Positions 128 through 50,300 of a stretch of DNA of 64,000 nucleotides are shown piece after piece. The translations under genes were made by a program, and so were the position numbers. The notes below the pieces were generated by a model. That model had not been told where the DNA came from, ran no database searches, and saw only the letters and a list, made by a program, of their open reading frames with translations. Numbering within the stretch: position 1 is the stretch's first letter; the number at the start of each line of letters is the position of its first letter. Source of the stretch: Rhina ancylostomus (taxonomy: Eukaryota); contig JARFYF010000063.1 in NCBI GenBank assembly GCA_030265395.1, forward strand, positions 21,547,805 through 21,611,804. The letters run 5' to 3'.

Positions 128-1830
128 ATGCCCAGCAGATCAGGCAATATCTGTGGAGAGAGAAAACCAAGTTTATATCACTGATGGTTAACCTTACAGC
201 TGAGCTGGCTAGTTCTTATTTAAATAGAAAGGAGTGAGACTGAAATTGTTTAATTTGAGGCTTAAGTCTCCAGTTTGCCAAGAGAAAAGATGAGGTGCTG
301 CTCCTTAAGCTCACATTGAGCCTTGTTGGAAGAGATCAGAGGGCCACAGACAGATGGAGAATTAAAGTGGCAGGAACTGGAAGTTCAGGGTCAGCCCTGC
401 AGACTGAGCAGAGGTACTCCATTGAAAAGACCACATTGTTGATGTGGAATGCCAAACACCAGACTGGAAGAAATGCAAGCAAACCACTGCTCCCCTTGGA
501 AGGACTGTTTGGATCACTGGATGGTGGGATGGGAAGAGGTAAAAGGACAGGTGATGCATTTCCTGTGGTTGCATGGGAAAGAGAATGGTGCCTTTGGAAT
601 GCTGAAGAGGTGCATCTGGTGTTGGAATCTTATTGTCACTGGTGGAAATTGTGAAGATTTATCCATTGAATGCAATGGCTGGTGGGAGGGGTGAGGGTGG
701 GATGGTGAAGAGGAGGAGAACTGTCTTTCCTCTGTCTGGGAGGAAAAGTGTTGAGAGCAGAGGTGTTGGGAATTAATGATACACAGTTCAGAGCTCTGAT
801 CTCCAGAGGGAAAGCCATGGTCAAGGAAAAAAGAAGGCATCTCAGAAGCACTGTTGTGAAACATCTCATCAGATCAGAGAGGTCAGATGGAGGAACTAAG
901 AGACTGGAATGGAGTCACTAAAGAATGAGAGGACAAGAAGCAGAATGGGATGAAGCATAGTCAAGATGGCTGCGGAAATTTGTGGGCTTGTTAGGATGTT
1001 TATTACTATCCTATCTTCTGAAATGCAGAGACATCCAGAAAGGGAGGGGAAAAGTCAGACCATGTGAAGGTGAGAGCAGTGTGGAAGTTGGCAGCAAACT
1101 AATGAAACTTTTGAGTCAGTATGAGTACAGGAAGTACTTCAATGCAGTCATCGATATTCCACAGAGAGGGGTTAAGGGAGTGGCCTGAGAAGGACTGAAA
1201 CATTGTTGCTTGCATCCCACAGAGGCAGGCATAGCACCAGACCATGCAAGTTCTGGAGAATGTGAGTGGAAGGAGAAATTGTTCAATGTTAGGATAAGTT
1301 CAGGCAGGCAAATGAATGCATTGATGGAGTGTCCTCTATTCAGGGAAGAAGTGAAGGGCCTTTAGACCCTCTGTGGGGTGGACATGCAGAGGAATTTTGT
1401 CCATGGTAAAGATTGGGACTAGGAAACTGGAAACTGTCGAAATGGCAGAGAGCACCAGCGATATCACTGATGGGAAGGGACAGGACCATGGGAGAAAGGC
1501 TGGAGTCAGGGTAGGAGGAAATCTTTGGGACAAGAGCAGGCTGAGACAATGGTTCTGTCTGGACACACCAGCTTGTGGATCTTGGGCAAGAGGTAGAAGT
1601 GGGCTGTGCAGGGCTGGGAAATGACAAAGCTGGAAGTTGCGGGGGGAAGGTCTCTGACTGTCTGGGAGAATATGCTGATGTTCAATGCTGCAGTCATGGT
1701 CCAAAGGGAGGTTTGAGGAGGTGCCTGGGAGCCACATAGAGCTCCAATTGTCAAACACCACTGCATCATATTTGTCGGCTTGGTTCTTATTGAACTCAAT
1801 GCAGAGGCGGGGAGGTTAGTTAGTAAGAGG
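128..1830 (-). mobile_element. Decayed Penelope-like retroelement (RT and GIY-YIG remnants)
   Basis: Frameshifted fragments QPCTAHFYLLPKIHK..CPDRTIVSACSCP, IFTMD..P..EGLKALHFF and FPCNHRKCITCPFTSS are typical of Penelope-like ORFs. Confidence 0.85.
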
Positions 1831-2306
1831 AATGGAAAAATTGAGACAGNNNNNNNNNNNNTGGCTGTTAGCAATGAATAGATCTAGAGAGGGTAAGAAG
1901 CCAGATCTAGAGGTCCAGGTAGGTCACCAGTTCTGGAGACAGAAGAAAGATGAAGACCCAAGGCAAAGGAATTGTTGTTCTTTACAAGGTCACTTTATCA
2001 ATTGGAATATTGTAGTTGGCAAAGAGATTTCTGTTCCTTTCCAGAGGATCTGTAAAATGGATACTCCCCCCAGCACAGACAAGCCTCACATTAACAAATA
2101 CAATCTTCACCCACATGCTTTTCGATTCTTTCAAAATAATGCGTACAACAGAAAATAGCCCAGTGTTCAAGGAGGGAGTAGTGTTTATTTGAAAGCACTT
2201 CCTCTCGCCTTGGGCAGCAAGTAAATAGGTTGATGTTCAAACAGTACTGGTTCCACTAAGTGTTTGAGTTAGAACACTGCTGCGTAAATTTCTCACAGTT
2301 GGACGG

Positions 2307-2311
2307 ATTGG
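2307..2311 (-). promoter_or_regulatory. Inverted CCAAT box (NF-Y candidate)
   Basis: ATTGG on + strand within the CpG-rich proximal promoter. Confidence 0.3.
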
Positions 2312-2388
2312 TGGCCGATTGATTGAAAGGGGGCTGTCTTTCCCTGTTCCTCCTTTGTAATTTGATCGCTGTGGGCTTTCCTCCGTCA

Positions 2389-2401
2389 GGTAACGATTGA
2401 T
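2389..2401 (+). promoter_or_regulatory. HNF1-like site
   Basis: GGTAACGATTGAT versus consensus GTTAATNATTAAC; 27 nt upstream of the SRE, matching the human arrangement as recalled. Confidence 0.6.
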
Positions 2402-2407
2402 ATGAAT

Positions 2408-2420
2408 GGATGGTCCGATG
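2408..2420 (+). promoter_or_regulatory. HINFP-like element between the HNF1 site and the SRE
   Basis: GGATGGTCCGATG versus human GGATCGTCCGATG (recalled); GTCCG core. Confidence 0.55.
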
Positions 2421-2428
2421 TGAAAGCG

Positions 2429-2438
2429 GTGGCGTGAT
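2429..2438 (+). promoter_or_regulatory. Sterol regulatory element (SREBP site) of PCSK9
   Basis: GTGGCGTGAT (reverse complement ATCACGCCAC), the same decamer I recall for the human PCSK9 SRE; about 60 bp upstream of the TATA box. Confidence 0.85.
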
Positions 2439-2464
2439 CCTCAGCCTAGGGACCCTGTTGACGC

Positions 2465-2472
2465 GGGGGCGG
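2465..2472 (+). promoter_or_regulatory. GC box (Sp1-type)
   Basis: GGGGGCGG between the SRE and TATA; Sp1 is a typical SREBP co-factor. Confidence 0.5.
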
Positions 2473-2496
2473 CGAGCTCACACCTGCCTGAACAGG

Positions 2497-2504
2497 TATA
2501 TAAA
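2497..2504 (+). promoter_or_regulatory. TATA box of PCSK9
   Basis: TATATAAA about 120 bp upstream of the ATG. Confidence 0.7.
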
Positions 2505-2620
2505 GCAGCACATGTGCCAGAAACCACTGAGCGAGTTTACCACCAGCAGTGCCACAGCAGCCGCAGGAACAGGACTCCTGTCCCACATCTAACCGGCCGC
2601 TCTCATACACGCCCTCCACC

Positions 2621-2794
2621 ATGGGCGGCTTCTGGGCAAGCTTACTGATTATCTTCTGCTCTGCATCTTTGTCGGCCGTCTCGGAGTTTGCAGGGGAGCA
2701 GCAGATCGATGAGGGGGAGACTCTTCAGGACTATGAGGTGGAGTCTGAGAGCAGGAACCAGAACAAGCCTGCACCCTTCCACCGCTCCAACACA
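2621..2794 (+). CDS. PCSK9: PCSK9 exon 1 (signal peptide plus acidic prodomain N-terminus)
   Basis: Kozak ccaccATGG; [58 protein letters not shown]; donor gtaagc at 2795; FHR matches the end of human exon 1. Confidence 0.9.
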
Positions 2795-5700
2795 GTAAGC
2801 TCCGCCTTGGGTTTCTCAGCATTCTGCACCCTTCAGTTTATTTCTGTTATTCGCTCCATGTCCTATCAGCATTTCGCCGTTTCCACCTTTCTAATGATGT
2901 TCCAACGCCGCCACTTGTGCGCGCTTTGCCTCTGACTTTGCTTCCTTGCTCGAAATCTTTCTGTGCAAAGCTCCAACCTCACTGATGTAAAGAGTGAAGG
3001 AAGGCTGTGACCAGAGAAGAAAACGAACTATATCCGCTCTTTGCATTTGCGGTTTATTTCTTATTTGGGTAAAAACGTGCAAACTGTGTCTGGTCTGGAC
3101 AGGAATTTAGTGGGGAGTCCAAATGCAAATTAAAATGAGATTATCTAAACGTTTCAAATTGTTTGCTGTATCCCATCTGCAGACACTTGAGTGCGTCTGC
3201 AACAATGAATGTTAGTGAACTGTAATTCGAGAAATGCCCACCAGTGTAGTAACTTACTGGAGGGGCGGATTGGAGTGGGTTTCGATGCATCCTCGTTAAC
3301 AACCCGATCTAAACAGGATTCTTCAGATTTTGGAAGTTTCAGGCAAAAACAGAATCCGCTGAGAGCAGTCAGCAGGTTAGACCGCATCGGCGGAGGGAGA
3401 AACAGAGTTAACGTTTCAGGTCAATGACATTTCCTGGGACGTTGGCTGTTTGTCTCGCCGCTGACCGATCGATTCCTTGGATTATTGTTCCGGCACCCCG
3501 GTGCATTTTATTCAAACAATAAAAGCTTGACTACAGCAGCGGACTGCGGGGCTGCGANNNNNNNNNNTGATTTCCCGTCCCCCCCCCCCCCCGCAAAAAT
3601 ATCCACGTCTGGGTGATCTGCCTGTAAGGGAACCGATATTCTGCCGTGTTGTAGCATTGGACCAGAGATACTGAGCTCTAGCTATAGGAAGAAAGGTAGA
3701 CCTTTCAGCTCTCTTATCACCAATCATTTAAATCACGACTAATTCCATTATCGGTATCCACTTGTATCTATAGCCCAGGAGGGCTTTCTTTAATTTAAAA
3801 AAAATCAAAGCAGGATATCAAACAATGCAGGATATGGATTGTGCAAGGAAAAGTTGGTTGGTAATGGGACAAGTGTTGAAACAAAATCAAAATTATCAAT
3901 TTCAGCCCTGAATATTTGGGATAACTAAGCTGCTACAGTTTGGCGACGGGTGACAGTGCCAGATGTCCAAGTGCTACCAATATTAAGACCGTATTATTCC
4001 TCGCCAGAGGACTGAATTGGAGACACGGGAGACTGCAGGTGCTGGACTCCGGAGCGACTCACAAGCGGCTGGAGGAACTCAGCGGGTTGAGCAGCCTCCT
4101 CCACCCACTGAGTTCGTCCGGCGGCTTCTTTGTTGCCCCAGCGGACAGAATCCGCTCGACCTAGCCCTGCAGCCTTAGAGCTGGTTTAAATGGTTACTGG
4201 CATCCGCACTTCTGCACCAGGTTCAAGGATCTCACTGAAGGGGGAGGGAAACCAGCCAGTGTTCATGGTCCGTATCCGAACAAAGCCCCGGGGAATCGGG
4301 AGCAGTGGGTCGCTTGGACTGGCAACCTGTAATCTGCGGGGATCGGTGCTGGGGCTGCAACTATCTGCAAATAACTACATTAACAGAGACACAGATGTTG
4401 GCATCTGGAGCAATNNNNNNNNNNNNNNNNNNNNNNNNNNNNNNNNNNNNNNNNNNNNNNNNNNNNNNNNNNNNNNNNNNNNNNNNNNNNNNNNNNNNNN
4501 NNNNNNNNNNNNNNCGCGTTGGAGAAAGGAATGGTCGACGTTGTGGGTCCAGACCCTGTACTAGGACTGAGAATGCAGAGGGAGTTGGCGCGACGCTCTA
4601 ACAGCGCCAGCGATCGGGGTTCAATTCCCGCCGCTGTCTGTAAGGAGTTTGTTCTCCCCCTGTCTGCGTGGGTTTCCTCCGGGTGCTCCGGTTTCCTCCC
4701 ACATTCTAAAGACCTACCAGTAGGTTAATTTGGGGTTTAAAATGGGTGGCGAGGACTCATTGGGCTGGAAGGGCCTGTTACCACGAAAGACAGCTGGTAT
4801 TAAGATGGGGGGAGGGGGGTCAGAGATAATTGTTGGACTGAGGAGTGGTGAAGGATGACGGGCAGATGGAGCCAAATGGGCGAGGGGAAGGGGGTGGAAT
4901 TGGGACCCAGCGGCAGGTGGAAGCAGACAAGGGAGAATAAAACAGGGAGATGCCTGGGGGGGGGAGAGGTGTGGGGAAGGTTGTTAACTTAAGTGCAAGG
5001 ACAGAATGTACCATAACCAAATTTGCTGCTGATAGGATAGGTGGGCCAACAAGTTGCAAGGAGGATACAACAAATCTACACAATCACATAGATTAAGCGA
5101 GCAAGAAGTTGGCCGATGGAGAATAATGTGAGGTTATCCACTTTGAAAGGAAGAATGAAAAATAAAATTATTGCTTCAGTGGTGTGAAACTTCAGAGTGT
5201 TGCGATACTTGAAGGTTATCATGCAGGGACGGCACGTAATTGGGAAGCTAAATAGAATGGTGGCCTTTCTTGCAGCGGACCATAAAAGTAGGAAAGTTTT
5301 GATGCAGCTCTACAGGGTGACTTGGAATACCGTGCACACTCTGGTCTTCCTACTAAAGGAAGCTTGTGCTTGCATTGGAGACAGTACACAGAGAGTTCAC
5401 TGGAGGGATTCCTGGATTGAATTAGTTGACATATGAGGAAAACAGGGAGATCGATCTGGGGTGGGGGGAGGTTAATAACTTGAGTGCAAGGACAGAATGT
5501 ACTGTAGCCAATATAAGGATAGGTGGGTTAACTTGTCGCAAGGTTGAACAATTTGGCCAATACTCTTTGGAGCTTGGAAGACTTGGCAGAATGAGAGATT
5601 TTTTTACTGAAACAGAAGATTCTGAAAGATTTTGACAGGGTGGATGCTTAGAGAATGTTTCTCTAAGTGGGGGTATCTGGAACTCGGGGCATAAGTTCAG

Positions 5701-8700
5701 AATAAGAGGTCATCCATTTTGGACAGAGGGGGTGTTTCTTCTCTCAGACTGTTGGGAATCTTTGAAACCCTCTACCCTGGAGAGCTCCGGAGGCAGTGTT
5801 GTTGAATAAGTACAAGGGAGTCAGAGGGTAATGGAAAACGTGGGAAAGGTGTTGAGGCCAAGATTGGATCTGCCATGATCTTAATGAGATGGTGGACCAG
5901 GCTCACAAAGCCAATTGGCCTCCTCCTCCTTCTGTCTTTTAGGTTTCCAGATCCACAGCAAAGTTTTTAACTCTTTATTGTCCTCTGAAATAATCTGGAA
6001 AGTCATTTAGATGTCTCCATGGCTTCCACAAGGGTCCTTTCTGGAAAGTCTTGCCTATGTCACATGTAAGAATAAAAAACCTCCTGGATCTCCTTATATG
6101 ACTTGTGTAACATTTTGTCCAATAACATTCCTGCAAACTGCTTTGGGAGTTTTATTATTTTCAATGTGCTTTATAGATGTAAGTTGGATCAGAAAATTAT
6201 TTCTTCGAACAAGTACAATGAAATTCTTTTTTAGTTAAATCTCACTCAGTGTAGTTGATAACTGACTCAGCATTTCTGCTTGGTGATATGATGAGATAGA
6301 GAAAGCGTTCAACTTAAATCCAGCTACCCAATGGGTGAATGAAGTACTAACCAATTAAACACCATTCTGATTTATAGTTAAGATTAAAATCCATTTCTCA
6401 AGCTGACTTAACTACGATACATCTTCGTTATTGTATTTCCAGACTGGTTGNNNNNNNNNNNNNNNNNNNNNNNNNNNNNNNNNNNNNNNNNNNNNNNNNN
6501 NNNNNNNNNNNNNNNNNNNNNNNNNNNNNNNNNNNNNNNNNNNNNNNNNNNNNNNNNNNNNNNNNNNNNNNNNNNNNNNNNNNNNNNNNNNNNNNNNNNN
6601 NNNNNNNNNNNNNNNNNNNNNNNNNNNNNNNNNNNNNNNNNNNNNNNNNCATGGTAAAGTCGATGCCTCCCCTTTGTTGAGTGTGGGGTGGGGGGGGGGG
6701 TTGGGGAATTGAGGTGAATTAAATATGAATAAGAAAGAGCAATGTGTTAAATATGAGTGTGGGAGGGAGAGGGGTAGTTCCAAGTGTTATCGGTTGGTGT
6801 GAGTTTATTTGAACTGTGTAATGCTTGGAAATGGTCGTGTAAACAACTCTGTTTAGATTCCCAGGTGAAGTTAGTGGAAGCTGCAGCAGAAGCCTGTTTT
6901 GCAGAATCTGAACTGTCAGCCAGCCTCTGCTGGCCTTTCACTTCTTCATAACGTCTGTAGCTTATACATTAATGTCTGGGAAGCAACATGAATAATAGGG
7001 CAGGAGGAAAACCATTTGGCATAGTCTTGAGAACAATGCTTTTTGCATATTAAATCACCTTTGCAATATCTTTGAACCAAAAGTTTAAAAAAAACCAAAG
7101 AACAGTTGTACACATGTGGCTACAAGTGTTGAAGCAACTCCTTCCAGGGGCTTTAGATTGCCTTGAACGTATATTTTGAAGTCAATAAACATTCTACACA
7201 AAAGATGCATTTCACTGTGTGTTTCGATGTACATGTGGCTAATAAAGAAATCCATCAATACATGGATGGTTTCTGCATAGTGTGGATCCAAGACAAAATC
7301 AATCCCTTCATATTTGAAAGTTAAAACAAAGCTTTCAACCCTTGAGTAAAGCCATGGATCCAAGTCCTGCTCTAGAGACATGGTGATGTAATGAATAGTT
7401 GACACTCCAGCCCAGTACTGAGGGAATGCTTTCTGCTGGATTCATGCCCTATTTTGAATTACAAGTGGATGGAAAAATAACCCATGTTGTTATATCGAAG
7501 ACAAAATAATGAGTTCTCTCCAGTACCCTGACGAATACATATCTGTCACATAACATAGGTTAAAAATAGATTATCTGATCATATTCAAATTGCTTTTTGT
7601 GGACTTTGCTGTGCAATATAACCGATATTGCAACAGTGACTACATTTCAGAAGAATTGCATTGGTTGTAAAGTGTTTTTGGAATGCCCTTTGATATTGTT
7701 AAAGGTTCTACTGCAAGTCTTTCTAATCACGTTACTCTTCTCTGTATAACAAATATCCATTTAGAAGTGTACTTTGTGAAATCTTTTGCACAGGCTCTGA
7801 GGCTACCTCACATTGAGTATATTGAAGAAGACTCATCCTTGTTTGCTCAGACTGTCCCTTGGAATCTAAATCGAATTGTTCCTTCAGGGAACACAGCAGA
7901 ACAGTATACCCCACCAAGTGAGTCTTTTTTTATATCTTGACATACAAAGACAAATTAATGACATTGTCGTTAATAACTAAATAAGCTAAACTAACATCTG
8001 CATGTCCTCTCAAAAACCTTAATCTTCTATCATATGTAGAAATTGTATAGTTTTGTTTGTATATGGTAAAGGGCTAATGGCATTTTCATTCACTTTCAAC
8101 CTTGTGCCAATCAGAGATTCCCACAATGCAGAGTTAAAATCCTTGTGCTGAACTCTCATGGTACGAACTTACTCCAATCTCAGAACTGCTTGTGCATTCC
8201 TCTTCCCCACACCAGGCTGTGAGCTAGCAGAGGCAATGCAGTGCCAATTTGTGGCCATTTTACATTTCAGTTATATATATATATATATATATATATAAGG
8301 AAGCATGATTATGCAGTTTTCTTGTAATTGTATATGCTAATACTTCACTTCATATTTTGTTAGATAACGGTGATCTGGCAGAAGTTTACTTACTTGATAC
8401 TAGTGTGCAGACCAACCATCGAGAGATTGAAGGGAAAATTTTTGTAACAGATTTTGAAAGTGTCCCAGAAGAAGATGGCACTCGATTCTATCAGCAGGTA
8501 ACTCGGTCACTGAAGTAACTTGGAAATTTCTGTGCTAGATGAAGTAATTAATTGGTTGAATGGTTTATCAAATAGTTTCAGAGCAGAGATTTCTACAGCA
8601 AGATTAGGGGAGCTGGCTCTTCGTTTAATAATTAATTCCTTATTCCAAAGATCACTGGGAAGATTGACTATTGATGAAAGAGGCACATAAGGATTGTTTG

Positions 8701-8968
8701 AAGTGCACTGGAAGACCACAATAAGACATACCTGTACTTGCACAGCAAAGCCTCAAAAACTATATTGCATTTAGGATCTGACATTTTTTTCTTTAAAAAA
8801 ACTTTTGGGATTTTGGCAAAGCTAACAGTTGTTATCCATNNNNNNNNNNNNNNNNNNATAAGGTGGTGATTGGCTTCTTCAACTGCTGCAGTCAGTGGCA
8901 AAGATACTCTGTCATTACTCAGGGATTTACAATCATTTAAGCTTAATTACTTTTCAGAGTGGCATTTT

Positions 8969-9008
<40 letters not shown>

Positions 9009-12000
9009 TAAACCAATGTTATTGGTAGTCAAGGGGTGGGCTGGTGGGTGGGGAGCTGCCACTTCTCCCACCTTGTACAGGTCCCTGACGGCACTGTTAA
9101 AATGGAGAGTTTCAGAACTTCTTACCTCTTGCTGATGAAAAGTTACGATGGTGTCTGATGTGGAGAGAAACCTGGAAATGCTCACCTATGTATTATCACT
9201 GAATGCATCTTCAGTTTGTCTCATTGAGGCAGATCCTTGAGTTCTCTGGATAACAGGATAATTAAAATGGTTTGGTGCCTAAGGAAAGTCAATCAGTGCT
9301 AATGATACAATCAATTTCCATTTTCATGGTCACTGCTAGAGACAATACTGTTCACCCCATTGAAATCTGAAAAGCAACATTGAGGGCATGCACTGGGCTT
9401 CCTTATTTAGACGCATGGGGACAAAATTATTTTCTATGTGGCAGTACTTCTTGACACAGTGAAAACCATCACTTGTTCTGGCCTTGAAGTTATTTGCATT
9501 TTTCCACAGTTACGCAAATCTAGTTGTGCTTTCTGGTTCCTGCTCAAGAGCTTCTCTTATAATCAGATAGTTTTGCCTTCTTTGCCCCTGCAGGCTAATA
9601 AATGCGATAGCCATGGAACACACACTGCGGGAGTGGTGAGTGGGCGTGACTCTGGTGTTGCCAAAGGAGCAAATGTCCGCACTGTGAGAATTCTCAACTG
9701 CCAGGGCAGGGGTACAGTAAGTGGAGCACTGGCTGGTGAGTACCATCTTTATACTGAGACAAAACTGAGCTACTGTCTATGCTGGGATGTGCCAAGCTGG
9801 GAGGAAACAGAGCAGGCTGCTTAAAGTCATTCTTGCATTTACTTTACTGCCCAGTTTACATGACCTTTATACAGAATTTATATTACTAATAATTTACATT
9901 CACCAGATTGTCAGGGCAAGGTGCACAGGATAGCCAAGATCAAGTGAAGGGCAGAAGAGTATAAAACAGGGTATCAAATGACTGGAGCTTCAATGAGAAT
10001 ATCTTCAGATAAGAGGAATTGAAGAGTTACAATACTGAGTTGAGGAGACACAGAATTTTCAAAAATAAAATTGTTATGATCTTTGACTTTTTCCTTACTT
10101 GTTTTTAAATTGAACTTGACCGTATACTTTTTTTCATAAATTTGTTTAAATTTGGACTTAAATTTTACTTAAAACAAGAAAAGTTCACCACTTCTGCACC
10201 TTGATATTTTTGTCCTTTTCATACCATTGCAATGTTTAGTTTCTCCAGTGCTTGGCCACCTTTTGGTATGGATCATCCTGCCTGTTCCAATTTTCTTCCA
10301 TCAATTAATTTGAAATATGTTTTGGCACATCTGGTTGGGGAGCTGATTTTCCTGCATTTAGTACCAGTGTATTCAAATCAAAGAGAAAGTGCTTACAGTT
10401 CTACTTGTTAAAATTCTGGACTGGATTTTTTTTTCCTCTTAAGAGGTAATGAAATCTGCTTTCATTTCATGATTAGACCTGAGACCTAAACAGGTGAGGC
10501 AGAAATAGAGGAGACTTTAAAGATAATTACTGTTCCTCTGTTCTTTAGGTTTGGAGTTCATCAGGAAAACTCTGATGGTTCAGCCCTACCAACCTTTGAT
10601 CGTGCTGTTGCCCTTTGTTGGAGGATTTAGTCAGACCCTGAACTCAGCCTGCAGACAATTGGCATGGACAGGTGTGGCATTGATTGCAGCTGCCGGGAAT
10701 TACAAGGATGATGCCTGCTTGTATTCACCTGCATCAGAACCAGAGGTATGTTTGTCTTTCTGATTAGAAGCAGTGTTGATAGTTCAGTTGATTTAAGGAA
10801 GCGCCAAGATATTAGGGTTGAATTTTGTGCCTCTGAGATTCATGATGGTTGACGAGCTGGGGCTGTTCTGGTGCTGCTTTTGATGGTTGGTTCATAATAA
10901 GGGAAGGGTTTACGAAAAGTATGGTTGCATAGGTGTTGTGTTTATACACACACCTGGTATTTAAACTAATACATGTTTTATGTCTGTATTATAATTCCTA
11001 GTCCAGTCATTTTTATCTTATTAAAGATTTACATCAGTCAATTTGCTCATCTCTCATTGAAGCTTTGGCAATCTAATAGCCCAAAGAGTGCATACAGCAG
11101 AACTTCTAAGACAACAGGATTAATAATTAGGTTAGGTTAAATCTTTAAAATAGTTATATTTAAATCAATTCAAGCTGACTTGGATGTCGGAGGATTTGAC
11201 AACTCTGTTCTATCACAGCTAATGAACACATGTCATATCCAGGCAACTTACAAGGGATGTAAGCAAAGAACCAAAGTATCAGATGAAATAAATTATACAA
11301 AAATTAACAAGCAGCTCGTTTTCATTTCAGGTTATCACTGTAGGAGCCACAAATTACAACAACCAGCCAACTACAGCTGGAACCCTGGGAACAAACTTTG
11401 GTCGTTGCGTTGACCTTTTTGCTCCTGGTGATGACATTGTCAGTGCTTCCAGTGACTGCCTCACATGCTTCACTTCGAAGAGTGGAACATCACAGGCTGC
11501 AGCTCATGTGGCAGGTACAGAGCGCAGACAGCAACAGGGCTGAGGAAACGCCAGCGCACAAATAGCTGCCCCACAGCTTTTTGGGATGCAGCAGTGGTTC
11601 ACGGGTCCTGTCTTCCACCCCAGCTGCCACATTCACCCATGTTCATGTGGAAAGGTACAGAAGTACTGGATGAAAAATATGACGATGCTGGAGGAACTCA
11701 GCAGGCCAGGCACAATCCGTGGAGAAAAACAGGTGGTCAGCTTCAAGGGTCCTGAGCCATAACATTGACCACCTGCTTTTCTCCACGGATGCTGCCTGGC
11801 CTGCTGAGTTCCTCCAGCATCATCGCGTTTTTCATCTGGATTCCAGCATCTGCAGTCCTTTGTTTCTACAGAAATACTGGAGCTGTCCATTATTTGATAA
11901 CTAAGGTGGACAGTTTCACACCTTGTTATTCATCATCTCCTCACCTGGTAGCTTTTGCATGCTTGAGGGCAACAATTCTTATTATATCTCCTCACTGGAG

Positions 12001-15000
12001 ATAAACCAACAGCTGTCTCTAGGGCTGCAACCCTTCTGGTCTTGGTATCAGGTACAAGAGAAATCAAGAGCTTTTCCTTTAGGTGAAAGCCTTGGTGCTT
12101 TTGATAAGGGCCATAATCCAGCACCTTAAATTTTCCAGTTTTGAGGAAAGCACATGCTCAGTATTAAATACCATGGATGCATATAACACACACATCCATA
12201 ATCTCTCATTTTACTGTTTCTTGAATGATTAGACAGGGAGAGGGCATCCATGTGCCTCTTTCTGCCCCCAGCTGTGCACACCCTTGTCAGATGCAATAAC
12301 ATAGGCCCCAGTCTATCCATCTACTGAAACAATTACAAAAATTGCAATTTATTTTTTATCAATGTTATTCATCAGATTACTTTTTGACCTGCTTTTTCCT
12401 CAACAGGCATTGCAGCGATGATAATGAACGCTGACCCTAACATCACGGTATCTGAATTACGCCAGAGATTAATTCATTATTCCACAAAGAAAGCAATCAA
12501 TGACATCTGGTTTCCAGAGGAACTACGCCTAGTCACGCCCAACAGAATTGCAAGATTGGCTTTGCCTGCACTAACAGGTGAGTGAACAGTAAATACTGAT
12601 ACAGTTGTGAAAGTTCCAGTGTAATCTGTTTATATTAATCTTAAAAAGTAGTCAGAGTACAGAATTCTAACCTGTAAATTAGCATGTATTATTAGTAATC
12701 TGTTGTACTATTGCTGAATTACATCTGGCAAACAAAAAGAACGTAGAACAGGACAGGACAGGACAGCACAGGAACAGGCCCATGATGTCTGCTTCAAACA
12801 CAATGCTGAATTAAACTAAATCTCTTCTGTCTGTACACGATCCATATCCCTCCATTCCCTACAATGATTGAGGAGATTCTCAATAGTTTACAAGTAAATG
12901 ATATGCTGAATCTATACTGAAGTTCTCTGAGGAATGAACAGAACTTCCCAGCAGTTTAAGGTTACATCTTTATTAGTCACATGTACATCAAAACACAGAG
13001 TGAAATGCATCTTTTTCCATAGTGCTCTGGGGGCAGCCCGCAAGGTCACCATGCTTCCAGCACCAACATAGCATGCCCACAACTTCCTAACCTGTACATC
13101 TTTGGAATGTAGGAGGAAACCAGAGCACCCAGGGGAAACCCACGCAGACACGGGGAGAACGTACAAACTCCTTACAGACAATGGTCGGATTTAACCTGGG
13201 TCGCTGGTGCTGTAAAGCATTACGCTAACCGCTACACTACCATGCCTGGGGTCTGTGGGATTAGCATGCATTATCACCTCCTCTAATCACTTCTCAGTCA
13301 CACCCTTATAACAAAAGGAAATATAGAACATATAGCAAGGCTGTTAAATGATGTGCCATCTGTTCACAGAGAACCAGCTGTTGTGCCGGACAGTGTGGTC
13401 GAAGAGGTCGGGGCTCACACACGCAGCCAAGGCTATAGCGTACTGTAGCAAGAGTGAGGAAATGTTCAGCTGTTCAAGTTTCTCGAAGAATGGAAAGAGA
13501 AGAGGGGAACATATAGAGGTAAAATAAATGGAGAAAGTTTACATTGGAACATGTAGATCATGAATTCAATTTGTAATGACACAATAGAGAGGAGGGCGTA
13601 CATAAAGGCAAGGGGAAATGAGAGCTGAGAACAGTGTTAGAACAAGATTAATGAATGCTATAAGAATGGCAAATGTGCTCTAAATTGGGTTAAAAGAAGA
13701 GGACAGATCATAACACACAATGGTAAAATATCTGGCTAAATAACAGAAGTACCATCTTCCCTTGATCAAAAAAAAATCTAGAATGGGGCCTTAATAAATC
13801 AGAGCAATTTCAGAGAATTGGATACAGCTTAATGGTGGTGAGTAGTAGATCAGGACACAGCACATTGTGTGCCCTGGCTGCCCAACCAGTTTTACACTCC
13901 ATCTTCCCAATGAGGCCGTTCATTATTATGATGATTATTAAGTTGCTAATCTTTCTAATATGTAGCACCTGGATCCTGCCCAAAATCACCGTCCATCAGG
14001 AAAGGATGAGTGGACAGAAATTCTGCAGCCGCAAACCTTTCAGTTTTGATATTTCTTCTTCATGTCTCAAGCTCGATTGGTCATGTGTTGTATTAACCCC
14101 CCCCCCCCCCAGCTACTGGAAAGTATAATCAGAGTGCTGGGTGCACTTCTNNNNNNNNNNNNNNNNNNNNNNNNNNNNNNNNNNNNNNNNNNNNNNNNNN
14201 NNNNNNNNNNNNNNNNNNNNNNNNNNNNNNNNNNNNNNNNNNNNNNNNNNTCCTTGAGGATCGATTCCAATAACTTTCCAACCACCGATGTCAGACTAAT
14301 AGGTCTGTAATTTCCTTTATGCTGCCTTCCACCCTTCTTATACGGCAGAACTACATTTGTGACCCTCCAGTCCTCCAGAACCATGCCGGAGTCTATGGAT
14401 TCCAGGAAAATGATCATTTATTTGGAGAAGACTGTTTACAACAATGCAAATAGATTAACAGCAGAAGATTATAGTTAAATTAGGGGTAAGGTCTTATTCT
14501 ACAATAACATTTGCAGAAGAGTGCCCACTCCAGATTTATTATAAAGATACACTTCGAGAAAACAGGCTTCAAGATGGTAGTGGTAACATCAGATTTAAGA
14601 ATTTTCAAACCTGAACATTTTTAGAGCTGCCAGACTATACTGCACTAATTGCATTTAACATGACGACAACCATGCACAGTCCAACACCAACTTCAAAGTG
14701 TGGATTAGAAATAATTCCTGAAACAACTGCAGTGGCAATTTTATGTAGTCCTGGTCGTTTGTTTCCTTGCAAATTAAATCCTCTTTGTAATATATATATC
14801 CTAGGAAGACCAAGGCAAGAAGAAGTGCATAGCTCACAATGCCTTTGGCAGTCATGGAGTTTATGCAATTGCCAGGTGCTGCACTTGGCCAAGAGCTGAA
14901 TGTCTCATCAATGCAAGTTCAGTGGCTAATGATGGCACCACACAAATGGCAGGCTGTCCACACAAGGATTATGTCCTCACTGGTAAGCAATGTTCTGAGA

Positions 15001-17395
15001 AATGTGGCTGCATGGAAGGGAGAGATGTCCTGATTCCGACATCTAAACAATCAAGTTCAAATGTTAGCAATGCATCCAAATTGCCCAGCAGGTGAGTTTT
15101 ACAAATAGTTTGTCAAGAAGCAGGAGTGGATAATTGCACCAAATGGTGTGCAGGTTCCAGATTCAACTCTCAATCTGCAATGAGCTTAAGTACTGGCCTC
15201 GCCATAATTCCCACAAATGGATTATGAGGGTGTCTGTTTGCACTTCCTGTTTAGCAACCTCCCATTGGAAGGGAAATTGAGGCCTCCAGGATCTTCTGGG
15301 GTTAGGCATCACGTTGGTCAACTTTGTTGAACAATTGTGAATGGTCAATGCCCATGTGGTGGTGAGATAGGGTTAAATCTCAGAACACTAGAGATGAAAT
15401 TGATCAATGGATAATGAGATAGATGTTAGTTAAATTCTATGCATATATATTTGGACTTTGACAATTAGATGAAAACACATCATATGAGAATTTTCCAAAC
15501 AGAAGAGGTAGCATTTAGATAGAAACTGATCTTCAGATACACCACATTAAAGCTAGTGATGGTGGTGACCCTTGGATTAAATGACACGGGTTTATGGGTC
15601 TGTGTGGTTCATCAAACTGGCATTCTGAAGATCTTGAAAATCACAGATCTATAGACATCTGAAATAAAACAAAATACTGGAAACACCCAGCAGGTCAGGC
15701 AGAAATGCATGGGGAAAGAAATAACTGTCTTAGATTAAATAATTTTGAGTATTTTTAGCCATAAATGCTGTCTGACCTGTTGGCAGCTTCCGGCATTTTC
15801 TGTTTCTAATTATGAAGATTTTACCTTTGCTGTAGCCTCCGGCTTTGAAATTTCAGGAGGTCAGAGAGGGGAAGGAATTATTCTGGAGTACAGAGAGAGA
15901 AAATCAGGCTCTTACCAAACCCCTTGAATGATTTACAGAACAACATGTGGGAAGGACAAATAGAGAAAAATAGTTATGGAAGACAGAGCTGAGATGTGAG
16001 GCATTGTCCAACTTCTTGAATCATAATTAAATTGTACTTTTTAAAAAAAAAACTATTAACCTTTTATATTTTGCATGGATGGAACATATTCCCTCAGAGT
16101 TCCTGACGTTCTGCAGAGTTGTAGGTAGTGGGAGGGAACCTGACGTATTTCATTAACATAGGGTCTTCACAGTCTGTACAGAAAAATCCCTGTGAAAGAT
16201 ATGATGACAAACACATACTGCAGAGCTTTAGAAAATCTTAAAGTACATGCTACATGTACAGTCCTGCTTATCTATATTAATACTGTTTTAAGGATGCTTT
16301 GACTAACTTTCCAATGCAGGCAAAGGTAGATTAGGAAAGTGACTCTGGAAATAAATAAACCTATTGTTTGCAGGCTGCAGCTCACATTCCTTTTCAACAT
16401 TCAGTGATACAACAATGCCTCAAGCAAACAAGAATTGTCTTGGGCAAAAGGAGACAACCTCGCATGCCACCTGTTGCCAAGCTCCAAGTCTTGAGTGCAA
16501 GGTGAAGGAACAACGTTCTACAGGCCAAGTGGAAAAGGTAAATCTATATTCTAAACATTCAATGTTCTTTTTAAAGTCTTTACTGTAGGGATTACCATAA
16601 TTCCCAGGGTAATATGACAGGAAATGGAAGTGGGATTATAAAACATTTCCATTGTTAAAGTAGATTTCTGTCAGAAACAGAACAACACAACTTTCAATCC
16701 CAAGATTGTTTTCTAAACATTGTTAAATGGATTTGCAAAAATGATGCAATTATCAGGCAAGTAGTTAAGACCATTGACTTGGATCAACTATTAACCATTG
16801 GTTCCCTGGGAGACAGCAGCAGTATACATGCTTGTCATTTGCCAATGCTCTTAGAGATGACTAGATGTATAAAAACCAGAAGTACCAATAAGTTCCAATC
16901 AATAAATATCTTGCTTGAATATTTTACATTTCCTTCTGAAGGGAATTACAAAGGATTGTGGAAATGATTCTTAATTTAAAATAGTATTCAGGAACTTTGG
17001 TTTTAGTTTGTTTACTTGGTTTATATTAGTTTGACTGGGCCATCCTGTAATTTTAAAAGTAAAAATTTGACTTAGCCTGATCCTATGATTTCTATTGGCC
17101 ACTTAAAATAGGGCTCGATACACAAGATGATTTATTCCCTCAGGCAGGAGTTTGTAAAATGTTTCTTGTCCACACTGATAGGTTTGTTGATCTGTGCTTT
17201 AATTTTCAGGTGTTGGTGTCATGTGATGAAGGCTGGACCCTGACTGGGTGCAGTGCATACTCCCATGGGTCTCACACTCATGGAGCATATGCCGTGGACA
17301 ACACTTGCATGGTAATTTACTCAGGAAAGGGGAAAGGTGCTGCAGCCATTGGCATTTGCTGCCGGAAGAGAAGAGGAGGACTGAAGTCTGAGTAA
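2621..17395 (+). CDS. PCSK9: Proprotein convertase subtilisin/kexin type 9 (whole gene span, 12 coding exons, ~664 aa assuming a 192-nt exon 2)
   Basis: Manually spliced GT-AG exons give a signal peptide, prodomain ending SLFAQ, subtilase domain (YLLDTS, DSHGTH, AAAGN, SGTSQAA) and three Cys-rich modules; exon phases are consistent; USP24 lies tail-to-tail as in human. Confidence 0.97.
4017..4140. repeat. Short inverted pair of Penelope-type terminal repeats
   Basis: gctggaggaactcagcggg ... cccactgagttcgtccggc. Confidence 0.55.
4595..4785 (+). mobile_element. tRNA-derived V-SINE (HE1-like)
   Basis: B-box ggttcaattccc and V-core tgtctgcgtgggtttcctccgggtgctccggtttcctcccaca. Confidence 0.85.
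5010..5935 (+). mobile_element. CR1 LINE 3' fragment, decayed
   Basis: KFA-D-like start, tgtgaggttatccacttt, MQLYR..WNTV segment, CR1-type 3' tail ggcctcctcct. Confidence 0.75.
6443..6653 (+). CDS. PCSK9: PCSK9 exon 2 (prodomain), mostly inside an N gap
   Basis: Acceptor ttgtatttccag then ACT GGT TG(n) = T-G-W (human DPW) before the gap; ATG|gtaaag donor right after the gap; the span is close to the expected ~192 nt. Confidence 0.7.
7345..7725 (+). mobile_element. Deu-domain SINE (SacSINE1/AmnSINE-like)
   Basis: gacactccag..cagtactgagggaatgct, gattatctgatcatatt..attgct, caacagtgactacatttca..cattggttgtaaag; ends ~70 bp before PCSK9 exon 3. Confidence 0.7.
7794..7917 (+). CDS. PCSK9: PCSK9 exon 3 (autocleavage site SLFAQ/TVP)
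   Basis: cag|[41 protein letters not shown]|gtgagt; 124 nt. Confidence 0.96.
8272..8297. repeat. (TA)n microsatellite
   Basis: Direct reading. Confidence 0.95.
8364..8497 (+). CDS. PCSK9: PCSK9 exon 4 (catalytic Asp)
   Basis: tag|(N)[44 protein letters not shown]|gtaact; 134 nt; not in the ORF track, translated by hand. Confidence 0.96.
8971..9007. repeat. (AC)n microsatellite
   Basis: Direct reading. Confidence 0.95.
9594..9735 (+). CDS. PCSK9: PCSK9 exon 5 (catalytic His)
   Basis: cag|[47 protein letters not shown](G)|gtgagt; 142 nt. Confidence 0.97.
10549..10745 (+). CDS. PCSK9: PCSK9 exon 6 (oxyanion Asn)
   Basis: tag|[65 protein letters not shown]|gtatgt; 197 nt. Confidence 0.97.
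11331..11514 (+). CDS. PCSK9: PCSK9 exon 7 (catalytic Ser, LDLR-binding strand)
   Basis: cag|[61 protein letters not shown](G)|gtacag; 184 nt. Confidence 0.97.
11669..11836. repeat. 71-bp inverted repeat (head-to-head Penelope-type termini, MITE-like)
   Basis: Arms 11669-11739 and 11766-11836, about 7 mismatches by hand count. Confidence 0.85.
12407..12577 (+). CDS. PCSK9: PCSK9 exon 8 (end of catalytic domain, hinge)
   Basis: cag|[56 protein letters not shown]|gtgagt; 171 nt. Confidence 0.95.
12968..13247 (-). mobile_element. V-SINE (HE1-like)
   Basis: ggaggaaaccagagcacccaggggaaacccacgcagacacgggg is the reverse complement of the V-core; tRNA-like head near 13200-13245. Confidence 0.85.
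13370..13518 (+). CDS. PCSK9: PCSK9 exon 9 (C-terminal domain module M1)
   Basis: cag|(E)[49 protein letters not shown]|gtaaaa; 149 nt. Confidence 0.95.
14251..14417 (-). mobile_element. CR1 LINE RT fragment
   Basis: [39 protein letters not shown]. Confidence 0.85.
14805..14982 (+). CDS. PCSK9: PCSK9 exon 10 (M1/M2)
   Basis: tag|[59 protein letters not shown](G)|gtaagc; 178 nt. Confidence 0.95.
16374..16537 (+). CDS. PCSK9: PCSK9 exon 11 (M2/M3)
   Basis: cag|[54 protein letters not shown]|gtaaat; 164 nt. Confidence 0.94.
17210..17395 (+). CDS. PCSK9: PCSK9 exon 12 coding part (M3 and stop)
   Basis: cag|[61 protein letters not shown]; TAA at 17393-17395. Confidence 0.96.
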
Positions 17396-38300: not shown

Positions 38301-41300
38301 NNNNNNNNNNNNNNNNNNNNNNNNNNNNNNNNNNNNNNNNNNNNNNNNNNNNNNNNNNNNNNNNNNNNNNNNNNNNNNNNNNNNNNNNNNNNNNNNNNNN
38401 NNNNNNNNNNNNNNNNNNNNNNNNNNNNNNNNNNNNNNNNNNNNNNNNNNNNNNNNNNNTTACAATTATATAAAACTATTGTATAATGATCCCTCAAGGT
38501 CCCTTATGTACAAGATACTGAATTAACCTTCTCATTACAGAACACCAAATCCCTCATTAAATCCAAGAAACCTCCATGAATTCATCTGAAGATTCTCTCA
38601 CCTGAAACTACTTTTCTTTCCCCCCAACAGATACGACTTAACCTGCTAGGTGTCCCAGCATTGTTTTTATTCCATGAATTTGTCCTGCGCACCACTGCTA
38701 GTAATTTGGTAGGCTTTCTACATGTAGGTTAAAGTAACCCACAATTATTATATTACTAGAGCCAAAGATGGGTGCCCTTTGTCGGTGACTCACCTCCTGA
38801 CACCCCTAGGCCTTTCTATCATCTCTAAAGGCACACATAAGGAGCTGTGATGGAATACTCCTGGCTGCATAAGTTCATCAACAACACTGAAGACACTTGA
38901 CACCATCTAGGATAATTTAGAGCACTTGATTTGCACCTCAACAGCATCCCTAAACATTCATCTGGTCCACTACTGGTGCACAGTGGCTGCAACTTGCACT
39001 ATCAGCAAAATGCATTGCAGTTACCCAACCACAGCGCTGCCCAAAACTGCAACCTCTATCACAAAATAGGAAAAGGGCAGCAAGTGCATGAGAACACCAC
39101 TACCGCAGGTTCCCTTCTTATTCACACACCACTATGTCCTTGACATATGTTGCATGTCCTGCACTGTCACTGATCTAAATTTGGGAACACCCTGGCCAAT
39201 GGCAAAGTAGGAGTACTTTCAGGGGACTACAGAGATTCAAGGCAGAGGATGACCATTGGCTTCACAAAGGCAACTAATGCTGGCCTAGCTAGTGATGCCC
39301 AAAATCCCAAAATTACTTAAAAAAAAAGCATATCCCATTCCGATTTATACTATGGCCTATAATACTATTACTGTTTGGGAGCACAGATACAACTCATAAC
39401 AATGATTTCTGATCCTTACTGTTTCTTAGCCACCAAACTATTTTATTCCTTGATTTCCCCAAGATCCTTTCTCTCCTGTCTATTTATCCTATTTCTTAAC
39501 ATCAAGGCAACCGTCCATCTCTCATAAGAACCATAAATTAAGAGTTTGTAGATTCAAAGACAGTTATGTGTAGTGAAGAATGGTTCATGCAATTAGTTTC
39601 AGAATACTGACTTTCACAAATGCAGTAAACAAGATACAGTTCATCTCATGAAAGGCAGTAAAATCACTTACCTTTTTCTGTAACCACTGCACAGCCCAGC
39701 TCCAGTGATGGGGATGTTCACGAAAGTAGTCCTTTGCAGCTGAACATCTATTAAATGAAGAAGTGAACTCACTTATTTTGGAATGAGGAAAAGAACAGAA
39801 GCAAAATTGAAAGAAAAACAACATCTGGTTAGCCTAACAAGGTGGCACATGCTACTCTCAAAATCCCAAGTTTAANNNAGAAAGATGGTATAAGATGAAT
39901 TCCAGAGATGAGATTAGAGTGACTGACCTTGACATGAAGGCAGCATTTAGCTAAGTGAGGTATTGATGAACCTTCATAAAATTGAAGTCAATTAGCATCA
40001 TGGGAATAATTGTCCTATGGCCAAAAAAATGAAGCAGTCCATGACTGTAGGCGACAAGATCTAGACAATATTCAGGCACAGGTTGATAAATGGGAAATAA
40101 AAAAAACACATCTCACAAGTGCCTGGCAACAACTATTTCCATGGAGAGCTGCATAAAACTAGCCATCATTTAGTACGTATGTGAATCTGGACCAGAGGAG
40201 GAAGAATATGGTACATGTATGATTTCTTTTTAAACAAAAGTGAACTGTTTGCCCATTGTGGTGACCAATTAAGCTGTTAGTTGCTGTTCTGCATGAACTG
40301 GTGACAAAGTTGTGCTAGTTCCTGGGTCCACTCACCATTCAATGCTTGGTCACACTATATCTTGATTGTAAAGTCCTCATCCTTTTTCTCAAAAATCTCA
40401 TGGGTTTGCAGCTCCCCATTTCTCATATCCTCGAGACCCAGAACCTCTGAAATCTAAGTGTTCTTTCACATCTAGGACAATAATATGCTCCAAATGTAAT
40501 CACTCCACCATGGTAGCCATGCCTCCAGCTATCATAGTCCTGAATTTTGAAATCCTATCCTTCCTGGCTCCTTTTATGAAACAAGGCCTTTAGTCACCAC
40601 CCTAATATCATCATCTTTGTTTCAATGATAAGTTTTATTGAAAATGCTCATGAAACATCTTTAACATGGCAGAATGTGTCAAGATGTGGTGTGGAAATAC
40701 AATATTCCCTAGAGCTGGATTTTCCTAATTTGAATAAACACTTCCACTCAGTAGTTAACACAAATTTACTCGATCCACGTTCCTGGGATGAAACCAATGA
40801 ATGAAGCCAAATTTCTGAACTCTATATATAAAAGCTGAAAATAATGGCAACATTCAGCAGGTCAGATAGGATGTGGCGAGAGAAAATTCACATTAAATCA
40901 GCCTGAAATATCAACTCCACTTTCTTTTATCATTAAATGCTACCTGATCATTTGGCAGGGAGAATCCAAAGAGAAAGTTGAATGCTTCCACCATATTTTC
41001 TTTCAGATTTCTAGTAAGTACAACATTTTGTATTCATATCTGAATTGTTCCAAGGTCAATTACACTCCATACCACGTTCTCCATTTTCCTTGCTGAGCAA
41101 TTCAGGCACAAGACCTGAAAATGTATACAATATTACTTCCATTTTGCTGACGGTGAACTATGGCAAGGTGTGTTTTAAATCATTAATATAGAATGGCTCC
41201 TAGAAAGGACATAAATGGACATAATCAAAGCCCCAAGGCTTAATGCCTTGATTGCGCATTTTGCATTGTACTGAGCCCAGACTGAAGTGTCTTTGAAAAT

Positions 41301-47300: not shown

Positions 47301-50300
47301 ACATGGAGAGGTGGGGCTTGGAGAGATATGGGACAAACACAAGAAGTTGGGACTAGGTGGGTGGACGATGTGGTCGGTATGGATTGGTTAGGTTGAAGGG
47401 CCTGTATTCGTGCTGTACTGCTCTACGATTCTAAGTAAACAAACCTGCATCCTATAATCAACAAAGCAAATCTTCAAATTAGCTCATCGTGCAAGTAGAA
47501 TGCTCAGTTACTATACCTTGTGCTTTGATGCATTAACAAGTAATGGGGGAAAATGTATTCTACTTTCAATTAGTTATAGCAATGCCACGGACAACAGGTT
47601 TTTGAAAGGATAATGAAAAAGGGTGGAGCAGTATCAGTACCTTTCTTCAAAGAGCTTCCTCTATATATAAGCAATATTATAAAAGTGAGTTTTTCCATTA
47701 TATGAACGTTAAAATTCATATCCCAAAATTGTGCCATTTTATGTCTTATCTCCAGGCTGTGCACTGACATTGAGAGAACGGAGCTGCCTTTGTTCTGCTG
47801 CCATTTATTTTTGTAGAAAATCTGGCACAGCACATGCTGCTTTTCTGCTTTAACAATTGAATTCAAGGACTCTTTTACCAGGATCTCTTGCATAATGGCA
47901 GAAAATGCTGAGTCATAAAATGCTGGGAATGCTCAGCAGGCCAGGCAGCATTTGCAAGCTGCTGCATGTTCTTACTTTCTATAGATGCTTCCATATCTGC
48001 TGAGTGTTTTCAGCATTTTCAGTACGTTTCCAATTTCTAGCATCCGCAGTTTTACTAAAATTTTTAATTTTCTGTTGCATCATCTAATGCAAAAACTTAA
48101 TGAAATTGTATTGTGTCTTTCTTCATCACCCAACACCCTTTGGTCTATTCCCCACTTTCAGCAAGAACCTACCTGTGGTCCTTTCATCCCTAAAGAAGTT
48201 ACCACAAAGAAATGTTCCAACTCTCACTAATAGCATTTTTCACTTCTTTCCTCCCTGGCTGTCAATGACTGCACTTTTCTGTTCTCTTTCCCTTAAATGG
48301 TGCCTTTCCATTAGTTCTCACTTGGAATGTGACCTCTTTAAACATAACTTCCCTTTGGCCTAATTTGGAATCATTCAAAGAGCCCATCTATTGGTCAGAC
48401 TAAAGATACATGGGTCTTGAGGTTTTGCATAGCTGAAATTCCTGCTTTACTTTCCCTTTGTGAACAAGATCTTTATTCTCTTTTGTCATCATCCATACCG
48501 GGGAAAAAAAATGTGGTGTTGGTGAGGATCTAAATCTATATACACCACAGCTACCTTACATAACCAATCACTTTTTCAAAGTGTCCTGAAATTAACAAAA
48601 TACAATTTGTCGCTAATAAAACTGATGACAATCCTTGATTAATCCAGACTATTTTTTAAATTCATTCAAGGGATGTGGGCTTCGCAGGCATTGAATTCTC
48701 CATCCCTAATTGTCATTGAGAAGGCGGTGGTCAGTCTTCTTGAACTGCTGCAGCTCTCAAGGTGTGAGTACACCAACAATGCGATAAAGGAGGTTGTTCC
48801 AGGATTTTGACCCAACACTGGTGAAGAAACAGCAATGTATTTTGAAGTTAGGATGGTGTGTGGCTTGAAGTACAACTCTTAAGTAGTGGTGTTCCCATGC
48901 CCTTGTCCTTCAAGGTGGTAGAGGTCATGGGTTTGGAAGGTGCTATTTAAGGAGGCTTGGTGAATTGCTGCAGTGCATCCTGTAGATGGTACAAACTGCT
49001 GTTACAGTGGATTGGTGGTGGACTGAGTGAATAGTTATGGAAAGGGTGTCTATCAAGTGGGCTACAATGTCCTGTATGGTGTCAAGCTTCTTGAGTGTTC
49101 TTAAAGCTGTGCTCATCCAGGTAAGGGAACAGTATTCCACCACACTCCTGACTTGAGCCTTGTAGATGGTAAGCATTTATAAAAGCTAACTAATTTTATC
49201 TCATAACCCTGTAACTTTACTCTTTATCATCAGTATGAGATACCAGTGAAACAGTCCTATGTATATGGAAAAGAAGTGGAAGTATTTTGTTTCGAATCAC
49301 TAATATCCTTCTCATCAATGAACAGCAAAATGTTGAAGCATAAATCTTCTATTCCATTCTGCCTATTTACCTTAATGGTCTGTAATGCCTGCACCAATGA
49401 GAAATGTTCATTGCAGAAACAGCAGTAAGTCACCATCTCAGAAAGCACAGACAAAGATCCCGTCAGCTCTCGCATAGCATACATAACCTGAAACAATAAA
49501 GTGGCACTTAATAAAAATGTCACTACCTCTCTTGCATTTACCACAAACAGGAATACAAGATTACAAAATCCCTGCACCATAAATTTTAACTTTATTTTTT
49601 CCTCTCTTTTTCTGAGATTCACTTTTAAAAGGGTGGGAACAGCCTTCTGCATCTGTGCATGGTAAGTGCCACCCTGCAGATAGATATCACATGTATATCG
49701 AAACACACAGTGAAATGCATCTTTTACATTTACTTCAGCAGTTCTTGCAAATATATTTAATGTGGAATTTCTCTCAGCCCAGTTAACTAATTTGATGTTA
49801 AACATCCTTAACTGACTTCCCTGTACTATTTTGAGAGATGAGCACCGCAATCATTTTAAATATTACTTATCCTGTGATAAGAAAAAACCCCACAAATATC
49901 AACTAAAAAATTACCTCAAGTAGGTAAGCTTGTCCTTCAGGTCTGAAGAGAGTTTCTACATCTTGGTGTAAAGGTACCTGTGGAGTTGGTGAATGCCATT
50001 TGTACTGCCCGGGATCTTGAACAACAAGAAACATTTAATATAGCTTGTATTCTTCTACTTCAGCTATTTTCAACCAAGAATTTCTTAGTTCCCAAATCAA
50101 AAACATTTAGCTAACATTAATGAAGAGTTTGTTTTCAGGGACAAATATGCATTCAAAACTGAATTCTCCACATTTAAATTAGCTGATATTTAACTCAGAA
50201 AAACAAGGAGCTGAATTTGGAGTTGTGCGCAATTATAAGCTTTTAAGCAGAATTAAGAAACAACTTAGAATTTCCATTAACAGGGAAATAAAGGGGTCAA

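Follow-up and report, generated by a model that had tools for sequence, protein, structure and literature searches.

The PCSK9 locus of the ray and its proximal promoter

The window, by which we mean the whole 64 kb stretch of DNA analysed here, carries a PCSK9 gene on its plus strand. A search of the PDB with the exon at 9594-9735 returned PCSK9 chains at E ~1e-20, the next family following at 3.5e-11, and a Pfam search of the gene identified the PCSK9_C3 domain (E 5.5e-25). With PCSK9 of the sawfish Pristis pectinata as the query, tblastn mapped 11 of the 12 expected exons, yielding a model with 0 internal stops and AG/GT at all readable junctions:

2621..2794, plus strand: coding part of exon 1, comprising the signal peptide and the acidic start of the prodomain, 93% identical to Pristis pectinata PCSK9
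7794-7917, 8364-8497, 9594-9735 and 10549-10745, plus strand: exons 3-6
11331-11514, 12407-12577, 13370-13518 and 14805-14982, plus strand: exons 7-10
16374-16537 and 17210-17395, plus strand: exons 11-12 (exons 3-12 together span 7794..17395)

Exon 2 was not found by tblastn in the readable sequence of the interval 2795-7793 and is probably located in the run of Ns between exons 1 and 3. In a protein search with exon 1, the single match among 20 candidates was Pristis pectinata PCSK9, at 93%. The encoded protein is identical to that of P. pectinata at 577 of 600 residues; identity falls to 86% with two other batoids, 79-83% with eight sharks, 73% with Callorhinchus and 56-68% with 18 bony vertebrates. 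Its place in a quick tree of 16 rows is among the batoids (support 99), within the chondrichthyans (support 100). These identities, together with the tree placement, indicate that the gene is PCSK9 of a ray close to the sawfish. A preliminary description of this DNA had named PCSK9 of a cartilaginous fish, a call that the PDB match, the 11 mapped exons and the batoid placement confirm.

Several minor features surround the gene. On the minus strand, positions 1-1850 hold decayed retroelement-like coding remnants with an IDD motif and a Cys-rich stretch, which had no match in Pfam and which we take to resemble Penelope-type elements; if so, only ~700 bp of unique sequence lie upstream of the ATG. 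Further minus-strand frames at 39585-39833, 49257-49850 and 61563-61808 look like exons of a downstream gene, probably USP24 in our reading, USP24 being a known neighbour of PCSK9; searches of PDB, Pfam and the ESM Atlas with this gene gave no usable match. LINE-type reverse transcriptase fragments at 52876-53598 and 14067-14417, also on the minus strand, matched Pfam RVT_1 without reaching the curated cut-off (E 8e-6 to 0.055), and intron 1 contains a short interspersed repeat at 4570-4790, which we assume to be akin to shark and ray SINEs.

In the proximal promoter of this PCSK9 ortholog, 192-232 bp upstream of the ATG at 2621, lies a cassette of three motifs. A motif scan of the window recovered the motif positions and the 27-nt spacer given in the preliminary description, as well as the core promoter elements:

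2307..2311, minus strand: inverted CCAAT box, possible NF-Y site
2389-2401, plus strand: HNF1-site ortholog GGTAACGATTGAT, 9/13 identical to human in a by-eye comparison
2408-2420, plus strand: HINFP-element ortholog GGATGGTCCGATG, 12/13 identical to human
2429-2438, plus strand: SRE GTGGCGTGAT, next base C, 10/10 identical to human PCSK9
2466-2472, plus strand: GC box, 27 nt downstream of the SRE
2497-2504, plus strand: TATA box TATATAAA

Across the 64 kb, each of the three cassette motifs has a single occurrence, which is on the plus strand, and the SRE is the only exact copy. The 27 nt between the HNF1 site and the SRE (2402-2428) enclose the HINFP element, which begins 21 nt before the SRE. 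The GC box, presumably an Sp/KLF-type motif, and the TATA box had both been described as following the SRE, and are present there; from the spacing to the TATA box, transcription is predicted to start near 2526. The CCAAT box is a weak candidate, given how common this 5-mer is across the window (158 copies, both strands counted). Over the window as a whole the CpG observed/expected ratio is 0.24, but in 400-bp segments across 2001-3600 it reaches 0.49-0.95, in keeping with a promoter. An Rfam scan of 1800-5000 returned 0 matches, so a known RNA family does not explain the element. A TTGACGC 7-mer, which we take to be CRE half-site-like, lies at 2458-2464, 20 nt beyond the SRE on its downstream side. 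In human, the D7 primer carries TTGACGC in the opposite orientation and ~6 nt nearer the SRE, a post hoc match that may be due to chance.

Gap-free alignment of the ray and human cassettes

As the human reference we used published oligonucleotides (an EMSA probe, a spacer oligo and primers), which were compared with the ray sequence by eye. In the accessible text of PMC2781434, the human PCSK9 HNF1 site is placed at -386 to -374, 28 bp from the SRE, and is described as identical across human, mouse and rat; mutation of this site or of the SRE leaves ~5% and ~14% of promoter activity, respectively, and almost abolishes sterol repression in both cases. The wild-type human spacer is printed in the Table 1 oligos of PMC10855603, and supplementary table 1 of PMC7026728 gives primers running from the spacer into the SRE together with the five bases altered in an HINFP mutant. 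Pieced together from these printed oligos, the human spacer measures 6+13+8 = 27 nt (PMC10855603, PMC7026728), in agreement with the human motifs and spacer length given in the preliminary description.

An alignment without gaps to the human cassette had been named beforehand as one of the points on which the proposed conservation could be refuted; it was obtained, with 36 of 51 positions identical in a by-eye count. The identical positions cluster in the elements, with 9/13 in the HNF1 site, which is thus the most diverged part as originally proposed, 12/13 in the HINFP element and 11/11 in the SRE and its next base. The linkers (2/6 and 2/8, together 4/14) and the flanks (3/14 on the 5' side and 5/22 on the 3' side, together 8/36) remain at background level. 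Within the HINFP element, whose 13-nt limits are those of the preliminary description, the sole difference falls at 2412, and the five bases altered in the human HINFP mutant (2413-2417) are all kept.

Could such a pattern have arisen by convergence or chance, an optimal SRE having appeared independently and the remaining matches having been picked post hoc? Two points speak for this reading: the SRE of the cassette has the generic SREBP consensus, and the limits of the elements were in part set post hoc. We estimated chance from match counts only, with p=0.25 per column unless stated. Once the SRE is anchored, 25 of the 40 columns upstream are identical without a gap or any partition into elements, which gives P=6e-7, or 2e-5 if p is raised to 0.30. 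For the spacer alone, taken as one unpartitioned block with 16/27 identical, P=1.6e-4, and the ungapped E when 1 kb is compared with 1 kb is ~6e-5. The harshest correction, over all start pairs and 40 lengths, yields 8e-4 at p=0.25, 9e-3 at 0.27 and 0.22 at 0.30; this last value would leave room for chance, but the local base composition is ~0.25 for each base. Elements and linkers differ in identity (32/37 against 4/14, Fisher P=1.4e-4, or 0.002 without the SRE, the HINFP limits being partly post hoc), and identity sits on the sites mutated in human studies and stops at the element edges, which likewise argues against convergence or chance. We therefore consider independent origin very improbable. 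With P ~6e-7 for the 40 columns that precede the anchored SRE, common descent is very likely, and the distribution of identity along the alignment is that of a phylogenetic footprint. On these grounds, positions 2389-2439 are very probably the ortholog by descent of the mammalian proximal PCSK9 promoter cassette. Although drawn from a promoter comparison that covers one cartilaginous fish, this footprint suggests that the PCSK9 cholesterol switch is as old as the jawed vertebrates.

The 5' site calls for closer scrutiny. It differs from the human HNF1 site at positions 2, 6, 8 and 11, and has four mismatches to the printed consensus, two per half-site, where the human site has two; 354 of the 61,471 13-mers of the window (0.58%) fit this consensus equally well or better, and two other 13-mers within 1900-2620 equal its score. 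Of the bases changed in the human luciferase HNF1 mutant, one of three differs in the ray, which retains four of the five that the HNF1 EMSA mutant alters (human probe, accessible text of PMC2781434). At positions 7 and 13, ray and human share letters beyond what the consensus demands, which fits descent better than convergence. In human, a FoxO site is described as overlapping the HNF1 site (accessible text of PMC8589637). At 2394-2399, in place of the FoxO-type core assigned to the human overlap, the ray has CGATTG and lacks this core; the FoxO site is an accessory trait of the cassette and was not treated as defining it. The change at position 8 is among those that remove the core, which suggests that FoxO3 repression of PCSK9 was a later addition.

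One may then ask whether, in a cassette that is homologous throughout, only the SRE and the HINFP element act as they do in human, the 5' site being in decay or occupied by another liver factor of the ONECUT/HNF6 type. The doubled number of consensus mismatches, the lack of an intact HNF1 half-site and the missing FoxO-type core are all consistent with this reading, and ATTGAT in the ray 5' site resembles the Onecut core, which would make HNF6 a rival occupant. Against it, the site lies exactly 28 bp upstream of the SRE with 9/13 positions identical (P ~1e-3 for this identity), and has thus stayed constrained at a fixed offset while its flanks were randomised; moreover, position 8 is nearer the HNF1 consensus in the ray than in human. 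We regard a cassette working through the SRE and HINFP element only as possible, though clearly the less probable option.

Spacing and read-through protein models

The preliminary description had further claimed that the spacing of the cassette is under strict constraint. Protein models that read through the promoter offered a check on register independent of the by-eye identity count. Among 143 PCSK9 proteins, the 135 named ones were examined, and 22 of them have long N-termini. Four of the 22, from drill, macaque, armadillo and alligator, none of them a fish, translate a recognisable cassette; these models, which start at promoter ATGs, are probably annotation errors. In drill and macaque, the models begin with an ATG lying within the HINFP element and give the peptide M-x-x-x-W-R-D; the window, translated from 2418, has the same four residues in register. 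A match to the drill query of this quality occurs at 10 of ~128,000 positions, and only once within 1900-2620. For armadillo, translation begins within the HNF1 site and the register is that of human; departures from the human peptide affect one codon of the HINFP core, one codon of a linker and the SRE. Taken alone, the agreement of this model with the window (4/14, a level attained at 0.3% of positions) is weak.

The alligator model reads M-x-x-x-x-W-R-D-P, in which W-R-D-P agrees with the frame of the ray SRE. Since WRD is expected by chance in only ~0.4% of 58-codon frames, the alligator WRD is probably the SRE. Between its Met and the SRE-derived residues, however, there is one codon more than in the primate pattern, suggesting, from one protein model, either that the linker between the HINFP element and the SRE is 3 nt longer in alligator or that the HINFP element is changed or lost. 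The remaining 18 of the 22 long N-termini, including those of pigeon, electric eel, bowfin, frog and two opossums, displayed no convincing cassette pattern, and may be too short, spliced or diverged; a short pattern match in frog was judged to be chance.

The claim of strict spacing thus holds for ray against human and for the armadillo, drill and macaque registers, but alligator suggests otherwise, and as a universal rule we rate strict spacing at less than even. That the ray and human linkers are randomised (4/14) yet unchanged in length suggests selection against indels in the ray and mammal lineages, and the register kept in armadillo points the same way. Alternatively, the sites may be ancient and their spacing loosely constrained, the equal ray-human length merely reflecting short linkers, which total only 14 nt, and the slow evolution that is characteristic of chondrichthyans, with indels elsewhere. 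The extra codon in alligator speaks for such looseness, though this case is read from protein alone and the alligator Met may not be the HINFP ATG. Loose and constrained spacing are, in our judgement, evenly matched.

The read-through models also bear on the core promoter, as the primate peptide cannot encode a TATA box at the position of the ray TATA box. The GC box and TATA box lie outside the part shared by ray and human, and, as far as these sequences tell, have no primate counterpart at those places; in the accessible text of PMC2781434, the human Sp1 site is placed upstream.

Proposed regulation and relation to known systems

Taken together, the best explanation is that the ray cassette is an ortholog that works as in mammals, which we consider likely overall. 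When sterols fall, nuclear SREBP2 would most likely bind the SRE, judging from the ray sequence and the human analogy; HINFP, just upstream, would direct histone H4 acetylation via NPAT/TRRAP, as in human. Strong expression would be limited to liver and gut by a liver-enriched factor acting at the 5' site, putatively HNF1A, whose affinity is probably below that in human, and the local GC box and TATA box would set the start near 2526. We infer factor binding and the sterol response in the ray from human experiments, and our confidence differs between the parts: by this analogy, the SRE is highly likely to be sterol-responsive, HINFP binding at its element is reasonably likely, and HNF1 binding at the 5' site could equally well occur or fail.

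HINFP is best known as a cell-cycle factor for histone H4, and Li and Liu reportedly described in 2012 a role for it at the PCSK9 promoter. The variant of the element found in the ray resembles, we presume, site II of histone H4; a mouse H4 promoter primer contains GGTCCG, in a source that does not label GGTCCG as an HINFP site. The role of HINFP at PCSK9, through histone acetylation, is described in the accessible text of PMC8589637 and PMC8626262.

A bolder proposal would be that the cassette is a rigid, enhanceosome-like unit that pre-dates the split between cartilaginous and bony vertebrates, that HINFP was a co-activator of SREBP2 at PCSK9 from the start, and that a repressive FoxO3/SIRT6 arm was added when HNF1 position 8 left the consensus; we put this forward tentatively and think it rather unlikely as a whole. 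On that proposal, the co-induction of PCSK9 and the LDL receptor, which blunts statin action, would be an ancestral jawed-vertebrate circuit. If the ray cassette works as in mammals, SREBP2 control of PCSK9 would date to the base of the jawed vertebrates. The comparison also points to a constraint on the little-studied HINFP element nearly as strong as that on the SRE, and provides a natural footprint of the bases and spacings that matter in the promoter of a drug and gene-silencing target. It reveals no new mechanism; the cassette is a known one, notable for its age.

The closest known system is the PCSK9 cassette of human, mouse and rat (Li et al. 2009, accessible text of PMC2781434), with which the ray shares the gene, the order and strand of the sites and the 27-nt spacer. 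Compared with human, the SRE is identical and the HINFP element nearly so (12/13), whereas the HNF1 site is weaker (9/13) and without the overlapping FoxO core. The ray cassette is also nearer the ATG, with the SRE at -192 against about -346 in human, and the GC box lies downstream of the SRE, where human has its Sp1 site upstream and primates no equivalent of the ray TATA box at that place. Classical SREBP2 targets carry an SRE beside an Sp1 or NF-Y site, and HNF1 as the partner is described as unusual for an SRE gene (accessible text of PMC2781434). The ray promoter likewise has a GC box, an inverted CCAAT box and a TATA box, but the conserved partners of its SRE are the HNF1 and HINFP sites.

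The cartilaginous-bony split lies over 400 million years back. In the literature searched, with subscription papers, figures and genome-browser tracks outside its scope, conservation of the cassette is reported for human, mouse and rat only. The accessible parts of PMC7929951, PMC12291266, PMC2034530, PMC1779597, PMC9263516, PMC12323225, PMC3128520 and PMC4359374 mention no cassette outside mammals; an earlier notice of non-mammalian conservation is possible. Synteny of the PCSK9 locus is described as conserved from sharks to placentals in PMC7929951, whose accessible text does not cover the promoter. Among liver modules mapped in five mammals, fewer than half of the human ones were common to a second species (Ballester et al. 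2014, accessible text of PMC4359374). Like these modules, the ray cassette is a combinatorial liver element near a lipid gene, but it spans the cartilaginous-bony split and is known from sequence alone. Given such fast turnover of liver modules even among mammals (PMC4359374, same text), it is unusual for a three-site metabolic cassette to align gap-free from ray to human.
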